From assembly GCA_902634185.1 (NCBI GenBank), contig CACPJC010000002.1:64001-128000 (forward strand): 64,000 nt of DNA, given 5' to 3'. The DNA comes from an uncultured Candidatus Actinomarina sp. (GTDB lineage: Bacteria; Actinomycetota; Acidimicrobiia; Actinomarinales; Actinomarinaceae). The notes beneath the pieces are model-generated. The model did no database searches. It had not been told where the DNA came from and worked only from the letters and a program-made list of their open reading frames with translations. Positions 3,114 through 41,183 of the stretch are shown piece by piece; the first letter of the stretch is position 1, and every line of letters begins with the position of its first letter. The translations under genes were made by a program, and so were the position numbers.

Positions 3114-4789
3114 CAGTTATCGCTACTGCTGGACATGTAGATCATGGCAAATCTACGTTTGTAAATTTTTTAACTAAACAAGAAACTGATAGATTGCCGG
3201 AAGAAAAAAAAAGGGGCCTTACGATAAATTTGGGTTATACCTATTTTACAATTGAGGACAAAACTTATTCAATAGTTGATGTGCCTGGTCACAAAGATTT
3301 TTATAAAAACACAATATCTGGATTTGCTAATGTAGATGTAATTCTGTTTGTGATAGATTCAATTCAAAACTGGTCTGAGCAGTCCGAACAGCATTTTCAA
3401 TCATTAGTTTCACTAAACAAAAAAAATTTTATATTTGTATTTACAAAAATTGATCTACTTGAAGGTGAGATAAAAAAAGAATTCTTAAGTGAAAAACTAG
3501 ATAATAATCAAGATATTAATTATCTCATTTTGGAGTTCAACAAAGAAACCTCTAGCAGAAGAGCATTTTGTGAATCTATTCATAATTTTGTTAAAACTTG
3601 TAAATTTGAGAAAAAAACACCGCGACTATGGGTCGATAGAAGTTTCACAATTGATGGAACTGGAAAAGTTGTTACCGGTACAGCAAGTAAAGATCTGGAT
3701 TATGAAAATATTATATACAATCTACATAACGAAGAACTTCAAATAAAAGAAGTTCAGAGCAGAAATCAGAAGAATGATAAAAATGATGTAACAAAAAGAG
3801 TGGCATTGTCTTTAAAAAAAACAAACAAAAATTTTCCCAGTAGAGGCGACCTGCTAACAAATGAAAAAATTAATTTTTCAAACAATTTATTTATCGAATT
3901 AAACAATCGAGATGTGGATAGATCCATTTTCAAAGGAACCTTAAGACTTTTTTTTGGAACAAATAATGCACATATATCAAAAATAAAATTGATAAATTCT
4001 GAAAATGAGACTTTTGCAATTTTAAGTCTATCCAAAGCAGTACCAATTCCAATTTTTGAAAATCTACTAATTCAAAATATAGACAGAGATAAATATATCG
4101 GTGGAAAGTTCTTACTATACCCTGATAAAAACCAATTTTTAAAGCTGAACAAAAAGATTAAAGATAAAATCAAAATAAATAATTTATTAGATATTTTTGA
4201 CTTTTTAGATATGAAATTCTTCAAGATTAATGAAAACTTCAAACAAATAGAAAATCTATATGTCAATGAATCAGTTGTTGAAAAGATTTTTGAAGATTTA
4301 AAAAGTAATACAGATTCAATAAATAAGGCTGGTGTAAAAGATTTCTTTCAAGATAACTATCAAATATCAATAGAAATATTAGAACAATTGACAAAAGATA
4401 AAGAAAATATAACTATTTCAAATAACCAAGTAATTAAAAAAATAGATAACTTTGAAGCACTAGAAAATCAATACATAAAAATTAAAGAACTACTTGGTAA
4501 AACATTGGAAGTAAACATTATTAATACAAAAGAATTTGATAGGGATGAATTAAAAGATCTTTTTTTATCCAAAAAAATTTACAGAGTTGATTCTAAAATC
4601 ATTATCTCCGATACACATTTGAAACAATTAGTTGAGATTGTTGGATTTATGTCTGATGAATTTTCTGTAAAAGATTTTAAAGATAAATCTAATCTTTCAA
4701 GAAAGTATGCAATTCCTTATCTGGAATTGCTTGACAAGATCGGAGTGACTCAAAAAATTGATAAAGCTGGATCGAGAAAAAAACTTTAA
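3110..4789 (+). CDS. selB: Selenocysteine-specific elongation factor
   Basis: TAGHVDHGKS, DRLPEEKKRGLTINLG, DVPGH; C-terminal winged helix SRKYAIPYLELLD; overlaps selA stop. Confidence 0.9.
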   Translation: MTVIATAGHVDHGKSTFVNFLTKQETDRLPEEKKRGLTINLGYTYFTIEDKTYSIVDVPGHKDFYKNTISGFANVDVILFVIDSIQNWSEQSEQHFQSLVSLNKKNFIFVFTKIDLLEGEIKKEFLSEKLDNNQDINYLILEFNKETSSRRAFCESIHNFVKTCKFEKKTPRLWVDRSFTIDGTGKVVTGTASKDLDYENIIYNLHNEELQIKEVQSRNQKNDKNDVTKRVALSLKKTNKNFPSRGDLLTNEKINFSNNLFIELNNRDVDRSIFKGTLRLFFGTNNAHISKIKLINSENETFAILSLSKAVPIPIFENLLIQNIDRDKYIGGKFLLYPDKNQFLKLNKKIKDKIKINNLLDIFDFLDMKFFKINENFKQIENLYVNESVVEKIFEDLKSNTDSINKAGVKDFFQDNYQISIEILEQLTKDKENITISNNQVIKKIDNFEALENQYIKIKELLGKTLEVNIINTKEFDRDELKDLFLSKKIYRVDSKIIISDTHLKQLVEIVGFMSDEFSVKDFKDKSNLSRKYAIPYLELLDKIGVTQKIDKAGSRKKL

Positions 4790-5040
4790 GAAAATATTAG
4801 GTTTCGTTTTCTTTCGACTTCGTTTAGGCCTCCCCAAATTCCAAAAGGTTCTTCAATCTCTTTAGCTTCCTCTAAACAATTGACTTTGACAGGACAGCCA
4901 TTACAAACAGCTTTTGCTTTTGCCTCTCTTTTTTCTCTATCTTCTTTCTTTTCAAAAGTGGCGGGAGGAAAGAATAAATTTGAACTATGTTGCCTACAGA
5001 GAGCATTGTATTGCCAAGTTGAAATTTTTATTTCTAACAT
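4786..5040 (-). CDS. whiB: WhiB-family Fe-S transcriptional regulator (WhiB3/WhiD-like)
   Basis: W...ALC...LFF...AKAVCNGCPV...C...GIWGGL. Confidence 0.93.
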   Translation of the reverse strand: MLEIKISTWQYNALCRQHSSNLFFPPATFEKKEDREKREAKAKAVCNGCPVKVNCLEEAKEIEEPFGIWGGLNEVERKRNLIFS

Positions 5041-5046
5041 ATAGGA

Positions 5047-5091
5047 ACGTTATTTCAAAAAAAACAAATGGCAAAAGGTTTTTTTCGCGAA
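5047..5091 (-). promoter_or_regulatory. Putative leaderless whiB promoter with upstream TTCGCGAA palindrome
   Basis: Minus strand: TTCGCGAA (5084-5091), TTGCCA (5069-5074), 16 nt, TAACGT (5047-5052), 6 nt, ATG. Confidence 0.55.
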
Positions 5092-37701: not shown

Positions 37702-37771
37702 GGTGTTTATTATAAAACATATATGTGGTTTGAAAATAGAAAGAATTTCTCAAATCAATTAAAATAGTAAT

Positions 37772-37856
37772 AAGACTTCCTTTCGTACTTTGAGCCACTG
37801 CTAAAAGTGTGATAAAACAAAAATAACAGCCACAAGGGAGTCTTTTTGCTTTTTTT
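37772..37856 (+). ncRNA. Candidate small RNA with 11-bp closing stem and two AGCCAC motifs
   Basis: TAAAAT at 37760-37765; AAGACTTCCTT pairs with AAGGGAGTCTT; followed by TTTGCTTTTTT. Confidence 0.45.
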
Positions 37857-39087
37857 AAGGCATTTTTAGTATTTTTTTATAAAGAAAATAATCTCTATCA
37901 CCTAATTCATTTGGAGCGACGGCTGAAACAACAAGATAATCGCCGTTACTTAGCAAAATACCAGTTGGATCTAGATAACTTAAATCTAGAGGTGATATTG
38001 GTACTCCTGTAAAATCCCATTCAAGACCATCTTTTGATGTTGCAACAAATAAACTTTGTGGTATTTTTGGTAACCCTTCTGGTGAGAATGAGAATATTGC
38101 TTTCCAATTGTTTTCTTCTGCTACCAAGACTTCAAAATCAACATATCCATTTTCAAATCTGTAGCCAGGATCTTTTGTAAATGAAATTCCCTCTGGAGTT
38201 TCTGAGGTTGCACTTACTATCTTTTCACCTCTCATACCTGAAGACTCATCTACCCAATAAATTCTTATTCTTCCATCTGGTATAACAACAGCATCTGGAA
38301 CACCCCAAGCAATACTGCCACCATCAGATATACCGAGTGAGATCTGGTTAGTGTAGGATAAACCATCCTCACTAAAAATAGCTGTCATTATTTCTTTTGA
38401 TTTAGTATTTGGATTAAATTCAACAAAGTATCCTCTGCGAGTGCCACTAGTTGTTTCAACAATTGTTAAATCTTGAATTCTTTCAATTGCACCTTGACGA
38501 GTACAGTTAAGATCGTAGTCGCATAAATCAACTGCTAAACCATTTGCCGACAGACTTGAATAAAATAATCGAAGTGTTGTGCTGTTAACTACTTCCAGAT
38601 GTGGGCTGACTCCATCTTGATTAAGACTCACTATGTCAACTAAATAGGCATTTTCTTCAACGTTTTCTGAGACATTTCCTTCGGGAAACGCCTGTACATT
38701 TGATTCTCCTTCACCTGGCAGAGGAGGTGGAGGAATATTACACATATCAAAATACTTGATTGCATCTTCTGAAAAGGGTCTACCTGCGTATAGATCTAAT
38801 TCAATTTGTCTTAACAGTTCAAATGGAGCATTTTCATCTAAACAATTTCTTTCTTTTTTTGATAAAAAAGAAAGAATTCCATCAGGGAACTCTTTTAATA
38901 TTTCATCAATTGATCCCATTTGAGCTTCATCATTTTTTGGTTCGTTATTCGTTTCTGTTTGCATAGGTTCATCGTTTATATTTGGTTCAGGTTCTGCGGC
39001 AGATGAGGATGTAGGAGTTGTGGAGCTTGAGTTACTTCCACATGCTATTAAAAAAATTGCTAAAAGTGAGATGAATAATTTTTTCAC
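37855..39087 (-). CDS. Lipoprotein with beta-propeller glycosidase/sialidase-like C-terminal domain
   Basis: GTG start VKKLFISLLAIFLIACG (lipobox); SEDGLSY and SKDGLEW Asp-box-like motifs, VPD and DP motifs; TATAAT 6 nt upstream. Confidence 0.72.
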   Translation of the reverse strand: MKKLFISLLAIFLIACGSNSSSTTPTSSSAAEPEPNINDEPMQTETNNEPKNDEAQMGSIDEILKEFPDGILSFLSKKERNCLDENAPFELLRQIELDLYAGRPFSEDAIKYFDMCNIPPPPLPGEGESNVQAFPEGNVSENVEENAYLVDIVSLNQDGVSPHLEVVNSTTLRLFYSSLSANGLAVDLCDYDLNCTRQGAIERIQDLTIVETTSGTRRGYFVEFNPNTKSKEIMTAIFSEDGLSYTNQISLGISDGGSIAWGVPDAVVIPDGRIRIYWVDESSGMRGEKIVSATSETPEGISFTKDPGYRFENGYVDFEVLVAEENNWKAIFSFSPEGLPKIPQSLFVATSKDGLEWDFTGVPISPLDLSYLDPTGILLSNGDYLVVSAVAPNELGDRDYFLYKKILKMP

Positions 39088-39104
39088 AAGTGGATTATAC
39101 CAAT

Positions 39105-39192
39105 AAAGCAAAAATCCCGATTGATCTTGCGACCCTTCGGGATTTTCTATTCTATCTCATTTTCGGTCTTGCGACTTCTTTTTTGATAGTGT
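39105..39192 (-). ncRNA. Candidate structured small RNA, copy 1 of twin pair
   Basis: Promoter TTGCGA-17-TACATT; CTATC/GATAG stem enclosing GTC-GCAA-GAC; second hairpin AAAATCCCGA..GGTC-GCAA-GATC..TCGGGATTTT then TGCTTT. Confidence 0.6.
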
Positions 39193-39258
39193 GTATTAAA
39201 TGTACAGGTAATCCAATACTTTCGCAAGAAATTCTGTGCTGTTTTTTTCGCGAACTTT
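39105..39258. repeat. Imperfect ~150-bp direct repeat (second copy 40577-40729)
   Basis: AAAGCAAAAATCCCGATTGATCTTGCGACCCTTCGGGATTTT is identical in both copies; TTTTTCGCGAACTTT also conserved. Confidence 0.92.
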
Positions 39259-39270
39259 TTATGAAAAAAG

Positions 39271-40545
39271 TCAAGAAATAATGATTTTTACATCTTTTCT
39301 TGGGTATGGAATGGGTGCAGGGTTAATACTTAAAGGTTCTGAAGACGATATATTATCAAAGTTTGTCACAAGTTTGTAAATCACATTTTTAAAGAGATAG
39401 CTAGCAAAAAATTTACCTAAACAAGTATGAGCTCCACCTGAAAATGGAAAGTACGAATCATTAATTTCATCTGTATCTAAAAATCGTTCTGGATTATAGG
39501 TATCCGGTCTATCCCAGTATCTTTCATCGTTATGAAGTACCAAAGGACCGATAGCAACGTACGTTCCGCCATCAAGTTTATAATTTTCAACTTCTGTATC
39601 TCTCATTACATAACGAACTGAAAATGGAACTGGGGGATATTTTCTCATAGCTTCAGAAAATAAAGATTCAGCTTTTAGGCCGTTCTTTAGATCTGCGATA
39701 TCTGTCAAAGAAATACCATTTGATTCATCCTTCAATTGTTCATAAAAATTTTTATTTGTTGAAAGATGGTGTATTGCAGATGTAAGCGTACTAGTTGTTG
39801 TATCGTGTGCAGCAAGCAAAAGAAAAATCATATGTTCTGCTATTTCATAATTGCTTAAACCTGTTTCATGTTTATTTGTTTTTACTAGTTCAGAAAAAAG
39901 TGTTTTTTTGTCAATATCAACTGTTTCTGCTTTTTTTTGAAAATAGGTAAGTAATTCCTGTCTTGCTTTTAAACCTTTTTTTAATTTTGTAAAAGGTAAT
40001 GGAGTCCTTACAACAGACGTCGCAGATTTGATTGAATCTGTAAACAATCTTTCTAACTCTTTCAATCGCGAGTTATCTATTTCATCAAAAAATAATTCAA
40101 TTGAGATCTTAAACATTAACCCTTTCATAGTTTCATATAAATTAAATGATTTTTTAGATTTAAGATTTTCAATCCACTCATCAAGAATTGGTTGAATGAT
40201 ATGTAAATAATTTACTAGTGCATCTCTTCTAAATGAATCCTGTAAAAGCCCTCTATGAAACTTATGATCATCAAAATCTCTCAACATTAAACCATTCTCA
40301 AAAGCTTTACCTAAAGAAAATTCCCAACCATGTTTTGATGAAAAATTATCTTCAGGGTCTAAGTAAATATGTTTTGTCGCGGATGGGGACATAAACATTG
40401 TGACTCTTTCATTAAGTATCGATATTTCGAATACATCACCATATTTCACTTGAAGATCTTGAATTAAAGACAAAGCATCATTATTAAATTTGATTGAGTG
40501 ACCAAATATAGGATTTCCCTTATCTAGCGGAGGTTTTGTCATCAT
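39271..40545 (-). CDS. Cytochrome P450
   Basis: AAHDTT, EAMR..PP, PERF, FSGGAHTCLG. Confidence 0.95.
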   Translation of the reverse strand: MMTKPPLDKGNPIFGHSIKFNNDALSLIQDLQVKYGDVFEISILNERVTMFMSPSATKHIYLDPEDNFSSKHGWEFSLGKAFENGLMLRDFDDHKFHRGLLQDSFRRDALVNYLHIIQPILDEWIENLKSKKSFNLYETMKGLMFKISIELFFDEIDNSRLKELERLFTDSIKSATSVVRTPLPFTKLKKGLKARQELLTYFQKKAETVDIDKKTLFSELVKTNKHETGLSNYEIAEHMIFLLLAAHDTTTSTLTSAIHHLSTNKNFYEQLKDESNGISLTDIADLKNGLKAESLFSEAMRKYPPVPFSVRYVMRDTEVENYKLDGGTYVAIGPLVLHNDERYWDRPDTYNPERFLDTDEINDSYFPFSGGAHTCLGKFFASYLFKNVIYKLVTNFDNISSSEPLSINPAPIPYPRKDVKIIIS

Positions 40546-40573
40546 ATAAAAATAACTTTATTAAAAATATATG

Positions 40574-40664
40574 AAAAAAGCAAAAATCCCGATTGATCTT
40601 GCGACCCTTCGGGATTTTTTATTCTATCTTCTTTTCTATCTTGCGATTTCTTTTCCGATAGTTT
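40574..40664 (-). ncRNA. Candidate structured small RNA, copy 2 of twin pair
   Basis: Promoter TTGCGT-17-TATATT; same fold with compensatory ATC-GCAA-GAT; identical terminator hairpin. Confidence 0.6.
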
Positions 40665-40727
40665 CTATAAATATAGGTATGTAAAGTAATTTACGCAAAA
40701 TATTTTCTAATCTATTTTTCGCGAACT

Positions 40728-41183
40728 TTAATCAGGAATAGCTGATTTTATCTCATTCAATAGGAGTTCTAATTCACGATTATCAATATGTTTTATAACC
40801 ACTGCATATGATTTTTCTTGAAATGAAAAAATAATCGTATCTTCATCTCTTTCTTCAATGTTGGTTATTTCATCTACGGCATTAATTACTGACAGTATTT
40901 TTTCTTGTGTCTTAAGAGCTATTTTTCCATTTTTGATTTCTATAACTGGTTGAAAGAATGCTTGAAGAGAAATAATTATCTGGAAAAAACCAAAAAATAA
41001 AATGAGGTAATAAAGACTTTCCTCTCTATTGTTAGAACCAAATTCTTCAAGATCAAAATAACGTTTTAAAATTTCTCTTAATGGACCTTCTAGGATATTG
41101 TCAATGGAAACATATGAAAGAAAAATACCATTCAAAAGTTTTGAAAAGAATTTATTTTTTTTTCGTAAAAATTTTTTTTCCAT
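40728..41183 (-). CDS. Hypothetical membrane protein
   Basis: ORF track; two hydrophobic segments plus a PH-like tail. Confidence 0.6.
   Translation of the reverse strand: MEKKFLRKKNKFFSKLLNGIFLSYVSIDNILEGPLREILKRYFDLEEFGSNNREESLYYLILFFGFFQIIISLQAFFQPVIEIKNGKIALKTQEKILSVINAVDEITNIEERDEDTIIFSFQEKSYAVVIKHIDNRELELLLNEIKSAIPD

Follow-up and report, generated by a model that had tools for sequence, protein, structure and literature searches.

Two copies of a non-coding unit on the minus strand of a 64,000-nucleotide stretch of an uncultured Candidatus Actinomarina genome (contig CACPJC010000002.1, positions 64,001 to 128,000; the window) point to a new small RNA (sRNA) gene family that is confined to Candidatus Actinomarina and made up of stand-alone genes under the control of an upstream operator, a reading to which we assign a probability of about 0.7. 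The source assembly comprises 974 kb in 16 contigs, with 32.6% G+C and 83% completeness. Both units have the same layout, in which the palindrome TTCGCGAA plus AAAA is followed by 19 nt, a −35 element, 17 nt, a −10 element, about 7 nt and the RNA body, and aligned over the entire unit they show a mean column identity of 83%. Their parts, all on the minus strand, are listed below; RNA ends are predicted, and scores refer to covariance model R1, which was built from 34 distinct copies.

39105-39260: sRNA unit, copy 1
39245-39254: operator of copy 1, TTCGCGAAAA, with the palindromic core TTCGCGAA at 39247-39254
39222-39227: −35 element of copy 1, TTGCGA, 19 nt after TTCGCGAA by direct count
39199-39204: −10 element of copy 1, TACATT, 17 nt after the −35
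39108-39192: sRNA of copy 1, supported by fold, covariation and model R1 (115.3 bits)
39152-39189: hairpin 1 of copy 1, with the tip UCGCAAGA at 39167-39174
39111-39146: hairpin 2 (terminator) of copy 1, with its tip at 39125-39132 and U5 at 39110-39114
40577-40729: sRNA unit, copy 2
40716-40725: operator of copy 2, TTCGCGAAAA, with the core TTCGCGAA at 40718-40725
40693-40698: −35 element of copy 2, TTGCGT, 19 nt after TTCGCGAA
40670-40675: −10 element of copy 2, TATATT, 17 nt after the −35
40580-40663: sRNA of copy 2, supported by fold and model R1 (110 bits)
40624-40661: hairpin 1 of copy 2, with its tip at 40639-40646
40583-40618: hairpin 2 (terminator) of copy 2, with its tip at 40597-40604 and U5 at 40582-40586

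An earlier reading of this DNA, made from its letters and open reading frames (ORFs) and called here the sequence-only reading, had described two minus-strand copies with these operator, −35 and −10 spacings, and direct counting confirmed them. Its further claim that gene parts are kept while spacers diverge held in a 53-copy alignment, where TTGC of the −35 and, 17 nt later, TA.ATT of the −10 are kept between diverged spacers. Each copy has a promoter of its own, as expected of a stand-alone bacterial sRNA gene, and the operator of copy 2 begins immediately past the stop codon of an upstream 151-aa ORF. Within the window TTCGCGAA was observed 3 times compared to 0.23 expected, and UCGCAAGA 5 times compared to 0.93 expected. 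The transcript would start about 7 nt past the −10 and end in the U-tract, giving a length of about 83-86 nt; the short RNA ending at a terminator that had been proposed stands, and only its length of about 88 nt is revised. It had also been claimed that no ORF is conserved, and indeed none is common to both copies, since AUG is missing from copy 2 and copy 1 offers AUG-AGA-UAG only. In copy 1, the −35 region (TCTTGCGA) reads as the reverse complement of the tip UCGCAAGA; we treated this as chance because copy 2 and the relatives do not keep it.

The minimum-energy fold is alike in both RNAs and corresponds to the two GCAA-capped hairpins and terminator described before, with two hairpins followed by U5. 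In hairpin 1, CUAUC and GAUAG form an outer stem of 5 bp, beyond which a symmetric, purine-rich 9x9 internal loop leads to a 3-bp stem with a GCAA cap; hairpin 2 is composed of a 7-bp stem (AUCCCGA/UCGGGAU, which A-U pairs can extend), a 2x2 A/G loop, a 4-bp stem (GGUC/GAUC) and a second GCAA cap. Folding energies were −26.1 kcal/mol for copy 1 (z = −5.75) and −25.5 kcal/mol for copy 2 (z = −4.79), and no shuffled sequence folded as well (0/200). Base pairs were counted in 85 copies, 58 of which are distinct. Standard pairs filled 92.2% of cells compared to 27-46% when partners were slid by 1-3 columns; changes on both sides occurred at 13/25 pairs compared to 5.1 in shuffles, a value reached in 0/500 of them, and the covariation score was 0.152 compared to 0.075 in shuffles. 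RNAalifold, unaided, gave the same three helices, all of which are supported by covariation. The inner pair of hairpin 1, where the sequence-only reading had seen a compensatory GUC/GAC versus AUC/GAU change, is G-C in 30 of the distinct copies, A-U in 27 and U-A in 1, and is never unpaired; the outer stem has been rebuilt variously as CUAUC/GAUAG, CUAUU/AAUAG and CACUA/UAGUG, and as ACUUA/UAAGU in the sister genus.

Changes on both sides also occur at terminator pairs 61-80, 62-79, 65-76 and 67-74. The terminator is a composite stem of 11-14 bp plus U5, paired in 100% of cells among the 58 distinct copies, and gives each unit an intrinsic terminator of its own. G-U pairs were found at pair 66-75 in 57/58 copies, at 61-80 in 11 and at 62-79 in 9, and because these would be A-C on the opposite strand they assign the RNA to the minus strand, as the promoter and the U-tract also imply.

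To establish how widely the unit is distributed, we combined homology, covariance and pattern searches. BLAST with the 156-nt unit gave matches in 56/62 genomes of the order, at 1-7 places per genome and mostly spanning the full unit with operator and promoter, so that the 'redundant pair' of the sequence-only reading, correct for the two copies seen here, understated a family that is genus-wide with 1-7 copies per genome. In a search with stricter filters, model R1 matched 31/148 sampled genomes of the class, namely 30/32 of the genus and the window's own genome, and none of the 116 sampled genomes from other families of the class. The only genome of the sister genus (G061) carries one divergent copy (72 bits) with CTCGCGAAAA upstream. 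A scan with an exact IUPAC pattern for hairpin 2, covering one genome per species in 185,579 species, returned 76 stretches whose titles name Candidatus Actinomarina or Actinomarinales and, in a few cases, Acidimicrobiia, Acidimicrobiaceae or Actinomycetota, and the same pattern had no match in viral contigs. A 7-kb contig of a 'Methanosarcinales' metagenome-assembled genome (L132, CAZRZP010000018.1) holds a full sRNA copy (95 bits) and is probably a mis-binned Actinomarina contig.

The sequence-only reading had not recognised the family, and a search of the whole 64-kb window with Rfam 15 (4227 models) likewise gave no match at the gathering threshold. Relaxing the cut-off to E ≤ 10 over 38900-40900 gave chance-level matches only (≤27 bits, driven by the terminator), and seven related loci gave tRNA only at the gathering score. 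The 6C RNA model (RF01066) had no match in the genome at E ≤ 10, a result of limited sensitivity since a Corynebacterium control also fell under the cut-off. The RNA was not described among the matches listed for literature on Actinomarina or Actinomarinales and on marine actinobacterial sRNAs, and the 19-nt tip string was absent from the literature searched. Term searches of PMC7771536 and of the preprint 10.64898/2026.04.03.716425 brought up no mention of an sRNA, riboswitch or P450. Fig. 3 of PMC7771536 does show a track of non-coding RNAs (ncRNAs), and this track or the supplementary tables of that paper may list some; the passages of PMC5069720 that came up held nothing relevant to an Actinomarina RNA. 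Passages of PMC7771536 give the host median intergenic spacers of 2-3 bp and a coding density of about 97%, and spacers this short make it unlikely that the two non-coding units, of about 180 bp each, are idle.

In 113 copies with enough flanking sequence, TTCGCGAA was present upstream as an exact match in 90 and with one mismatch in 21, and was absent from 2 (one of which holds an N), always 54-57 nt before the start of the R1 model. The window genome contains 6 TTCGCGAA, all extended to TTCGCGAAAA: two at sRNA genes, one before a whiB paralogue, two before dnaA and one intragenic. The whiB site is placed as follows.

5082-5091, minus strand: TTCGCGAAAA, 51 nt before the ATG of the whiB paralogue ORF 4786-5040 (PF02467, E = 3.9e-21)

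Of 26 TTCGCGAAAA sites in five further genomes, 13 belong to sRNA genes, 7 precede dnaA and 3 precede the whiB orthologue, with another 3 at other places. Co-regulation with WhiB, as the sequence-only reading had it, gained support, as TTCGCGAAAA stands upstream of the whiB orthologue in 6/6 genomes having it (51 nt before the ATG in 5). The orthologue itself is variable, being present in G000, G002, G026, G047, G051 and G061 (sister genus) and absent from G017, G056 and G016, and other Wbl paralogues had TTCGCGAAAA at 0/8 loci. Between rpmH/rnpA and dnaA, outside the window at G000:C2:140948-140977 (L005 1505-1535), two TTCGCGAAAA sites repeat directly at a distance of 20 nt, with a conserved AACTAACTAG after them; among 6 genomes examined, this tandem pair is exact in G000, G017, G026 and G056 and has one mismatch in G047. 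The same site is thus conserved at orthologous promoters across species (whiB, dnaA and 111/113 sRNA copies), which suggests that the sRNA, one whiB paralogue and dnaA may form one small regulon. To our knowledge, no known actinobacterial regulator motif fits the operator, and the matches listed for TTCGCGAA in the literature included no actinobacterial regulator. According to passages of PMC7771536, Actinomarina genomes encode two sigma factors, and two-component systems are not identifiable in them. The whiB genes also show a −10 of the form TAnnGT 6 nt before the ATG (TAACGT in window 4786-5091, minus strand), and the gene appears leaderless. At two loci (L168, G017:C1 ~854,900; L169, G016:C5 ~700,300) another Wbl paralogue has a CRP-type TGTGA-N6-TCACA upstream and lacks TTCGCGAAAA.

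The two hairpin tips were among the best-conserved parts of the RNA. In 84 distinct full-length copies from two pooled alignments, 168/168 loops were GNRA, a count to be read knowing that 76 loci had been fetched by a pattern demanding GCAA in one hairpin 2 per locus. Hairpin 1 loops were GCAA in 65 copies, GAAA in 18 and GUAA in 1, and hairpin 2 loops were GCAA in 80, GAGA in 2, GGAA in 1 and GAAA in 1; where GAGA occurs, the pair below it has changed from U-A to C-G in compensation. Loop positions 1 and 4 were unchanged in every copy, and the flanking U-C and G-A are almost invariant in both hairpins, each of which ends as U-C-[GNRA]-G-A. With almost invariant flanks and loops that are all GNRA, the conserved thing is therefore a shape, presented twice.

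Each unit is best explained as a complete gene under purifying selection, with a sigma-70-type promoter, an operator at fixed distance, an ncRNA of about 85 nt and a terminator. In the proposed mechanism, a DNA-binding factor would act on TTCGCGAAAA and so couple the RNA to one whiB paralogue and dnaA, and the RNA, released at the terminator, would act in trans. Its two identical GNRA-capped UCGNRAGA hairpin tips may be recognised by shape, and the recogniser may be a protein, possibly a dimer, that the RNA titrates or guides. That the RNA is structured and bound at its two tips by such a protein is a tentative proposal, which we rate at somewhat below even odds. The sequence-only reading had suggested protein-binding UCGCAAGA loops acting as a sponge; the GNRA loops do fit shape recognition, while the search produced no partner, so that binding and a sponge role were not borne out. 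Neither Hfq (PF17209), CsrA (PF02599) nor ProQ was found in the genome (83% complete), and the partner would therefore be something else. A more far-reaching version, in which the TTCGCGAAAA-binding factor jointly controls dnaA, a WhiB-family regulator and a multi-copy RNA as a minimal growth or cell-cycle circuit of an exceptionally streamlined free-living bacterium, with the RNA as its riboregulatory arm and the GNRA tips capturing a dimeric global regulator, is speculative and in our view improbable.

The RNA could alternatively be a trans-acting antisense sRNA whose purine-rich single strands (the sides of the hairpin 1 loop and the AAUAGAAAAU linker) pair with pyrimidine-rich mRNA without a chaperone, the hairpins serving for stability and termination. 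Most bacterial sRNAs work in this manner, and the loop strands and linker are unpaired in the fold and partly conserved (AAAAGAA, GAAAA, AGAAAAU); positions across the hairpin 1 loop pair no more than chance and may be free, and the missing Hfq, ProQ and CsrA would match other actinobacteria whose sRNAs pair unaided. However, the parts of the RNA that are best conserved are the two GNRA-capped tips and all of hairpin 2 rather than the single strands, and the loops vary solely at the N of GNRA, which a shape would predict and a seed would not. The A-rich strands are also of low complexity in a genome with 32.6% G+C, and a search of the genome for perfect complements of 11-12 nt gave scattered A/T-rich matches with no pattern. 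For these reasons shape recognition was favoured over an antisense seed, and we consider antisense action, the main alternative, somewhat less likely.

Several observations weigh against the reading of the units as stand-alone, operator-controlled genes for a structured RNA, and they concern the alignment, the operator counts, the partner, the expression data and the downstream genes. The copies used for model R1 are kin, with an effective number of sequences of 1.12, and because diversity is this low few independent changes underlie the covariation. One subfamily shows A-U/U-A at columns 19-38 and 20-37, which had raised the suspicion of a helix across the 9x9 loop of hairpin 1; this helix was rejected, as cross-loop pairing filled 14.8% of cells, no more than in shuffles or with slid partners. 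The bare TTCGCGAA 8-mer is not over-represented genome-wide (6, compared to 2-22 for ten similar palindromes), and in five genomes a reversed control pattern occurred 14 times compared to 26 for the real pattern; it is conserved position at orthologous promoters, rather than such counts, that supports the regulon. The analysis identified no protein partner, ligand or mRNA target of the RNA.

Expression was assessed over 38900-40800 in four RNA libraries from four studies, which were mapped as assembled contigs only and so carry no strand, ends or true abundance. Contigs covered the sRNA in 3/4 runs (X3, X4 and X7), where DNA carry-over is possible, and because a conserved multi-copy sequence pools the reads of all co-occurring species, depth over the units is inflated. 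In X3, hairpin 1 of copy 2 was covered by three contigs (47-71 nt; 40605-40662) with depths of 2503, 1229 and 911, compared to 22.8 for a 633-nt contig on the cytochrome P450 gene that lies between the copies and 11 for a contig on the lipoprotein-like gene after copy 1. X7 had contigs on both copies at depth 13-27 compared to 2.7-9.4 on the flanks, and X4 had contigs on copy 1 at about 8 compared to 2-5 on the flanks. The copy 1 contigs of X4 and X7 fall within 39103-39201, and one of those from X4 carries an adapter tail after 71 nt, indicating a short insert. X6 gave contigs on P450 and none on either sRNA, an absence of cover that carries no weight. These data provide a weak hint that the units express an abundant short RNA.

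The genes downstream bear directly on whether the RNA is instead a cis-acting leader, in which the operator-controlled promoter drives the following gene and the terminator hairpin is a regulated attenuator or riboswitch-like element. Model R1 gave 118 matches in the 76 pattern-scan loci; after removing 2 cut by contig ends, 1 duplicate and 6 with short downstream sequence, 109 were classified. A same-strand ORF starts within 70 nt in 45/109 and at 71-500 nt in 36/109, a total of 81/109, as the leader explanation would have it. The two genes that follow the copies in the window, both regarded as cargo and not as parts of the RNA, are these.

39271-40545, minus strand: cytochrome P450 gene between the copies (PF00067, E = 3.4e-55)
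37855-39087, minus strand: lipoprotein-like gene after copy 1, with a GTG start at 39085-39087 and no Pfam family

The P450 gene starts about 35 nt past the U-tract, and we recognised no convincing separate promoter for it, so that read-through into neighbours such as P450 is possible. Two bridging contigs also join downstream gene and terminator region, one from X4 (40147-40606, P450 into the terminator) and one from X3 (38900-39148). The contig ends at 40546, 39148 and 40606 were considered as transcript ends or signs of read-through and rejected, since they coincide with a start codon or with points where the copies stop being identical; because contig ends fall where the copies cease identity, as they do in assembly graphs, the bridging contigs are weak evidence.

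Against a leader stand the copies that are not followed by such a gene, as 14/109 have another full copy with its own promoter within 250 nt and 12/109 a convergent ORF ending within 100 nt (other arrangements, 2/109). These 26/109 copies argue for a stand-alone gene, as the sequence-only reading had preferred on the grounds that the gene after copy 1 has a −10 of its own, and the RNA is not tied to one downstream gene. The same-strand neighbours are functionally unrelated, including cytochrome P450, various lipoprotein-like proteins, a FEN-like exonuclease, an nfo-like apurinic/apyrimidinic endonuclease and an alcohol-dehydrogenase-like protein, with inositol-phosphate synthase in the sister genus and tRNA-Thr(CGT), 20 nt past the terminator, at a second conserved locus. 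The claim that the gene after copy 1 has its own −10 was upheld: TGGTATAAT lies at 39094-39099, 6 nt ahead of the GTG, and the alignment shows that relatives with that lipoprotein keep the TATAMT-6 nt-GTG layout of this extended −10, which would fit a leaderless mRNA from the gene's own promoter. A riboswitch or attenuator leader calls for a fixed downstream class and mutually exclusive folds; instead, the downstream genes are diverse, no anti-terminator fold competes with the terminator beyond a 3-bp CCC/GGG option, and covariation supports the terminator form alone. Considered together, these results make a leader quite improbable and favour the stand-alone gene.

In the window, the order is the 151-aa ORF, copy 2, P450, copy 1, the lipoprotein gene, a third conserved element and nfo. 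Relatives show other orders (copy, convergent GNAT, copy, P450; or copy, copy, nfo), with different lipoproteins, and the P450 gene between copies is present in some and absent in others; copies frequently occur in tandem and border variable genes. It is highly improbable that the repeats matter mainly as DNA, as homologous blocks for swapping cassettes (P450, lipoprotein, GNAT) with incidental transcription, for although they bracket genes that differ between genomes and a degenerate copy adjoins a P450 remnant, recombination needs no promoter, fixed-distance operator, GNRA loops or compensatory changes, the G-U pairs are strand-specific, a lone copy next to tRNA-Thr at one locus has no cassette, and the swapping is better regarded as a by-product of repeated genes serving as natural cross-over points.

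The degenerate copy (L038 3316-3405, G016:C4) scores 76 bits, has deletions in hairpin 2 and adjoins a 113-aa P450 remnant, and looks like a cassette in decay. In L011 (G033:C9) the P450 ORF has 282 aa compared to 422-425 aa in relatives, which may reflect a frameshift or an assembly error. At the second locus (L042 1448-1632, G056:C1; also L043, L044 and L047), a copy of a divergent subfamily lies 20 nt upstream of tRNA-Thr(CGT), with a PP-loop (tilS-like) gene next in line; no copy was seen there in the window's genome, which is 83% complete. The third non-coding element, between the lipoprotein gene and nfo at window 37770-37855, is strongly conserved (90/159 loci) and in relatives often comes directly after an sRNA copy. 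It has no Rfam match, and its predicted fold scores better on the plus than on the minus strand (z = −3.53 compared to −1.57), with a long GACUUCC.../...GGGAGUC hairpin and a U-rich tail, which makes the element a candidate for an RNA gene that converges on the sRNAs.

Candidatus Actinomarina is among the smallest and most abundant bacteria of the surface ocean, and in such a genome very few regulatory devices are visible, among them this unit of about 180 bp, which nearly every species keeps in 1-7 copies. The operator common to the RNA, dnaA and whiB offers an entry point to growth control through a single DNA motif, one RNA and a pair of target promoters, and the short, invariant and probably abundant transcript would serve as a marker of Actinomarina activity in metatranscriptomes. 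The repeated copies help to explain the exchange of small gene cassettes at the locus. If the speculative cell-cycle circuit is true, the regulator captured by the tips would be an RNA-binding partner of a new type, in a lineage from which Hfq, CsrA, ProQ and two-component systems are absent.

Compared with known systems, 6C RNA (RF01066), which is reported to be linked to cell division and DNA-related genes, comes from the same phylum and is of similar size, with two hairpins and a terminator. It is defined by C-rich loops, whereas the Actinomarina RNA gave no match to its model and has GNRA tetraloops throughout. The guanidine-II riboswitch (mini-ykkC) and ANTAR target RNAs likewise have two short hairpins, conserved in the loops rather than the stems, the second with a terminator; however, they carry ACGR tetraloops or hexaloops and are leaders of specific genes, and the Actinomarina RNA, for which Rfam gave no match beyond chance level at E ≤ 10, has GNRA loops and its own promoter, encloses hairpin 2 within the terminator stem and is followed by no fixed gene. 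CsrB, RsmY and RsmZ also repeat a hairpin-tip motif within each RNA, are encoded by multi-copy genes and have an activator site upstream of the promoter, but they present GGA in many loops and need CsrA or RsmA, in contrast to two tips with another motif in a genome (83% complete) where PF02599 was not found. Yfr2-type sRNAs of marine picocyanobacteria differ from the Actinomarina RNA in sequence, fold and host phylum, and resemble it in being lineage-specific and multi-copy, with conserved loop motifs, in a streamlined and abundant ocean host. The sibling sRNAs Qrr1-5 of Vibrio, PrrF1/PrrF2 of Pseudomonas and OmrA/OmrB of E. coli have no sequence or model similarity to the Actinomarina RNA, and they depend on Hfq and a defined seed, whereas the Actinomarina RNA shows no evident seed and PF17209 was not found in the genome (83% complete). 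In their arrangement they are alike: near-identical short genes, some in tandem, each with its own promoter carrying a shared regulator site and its own terminator.

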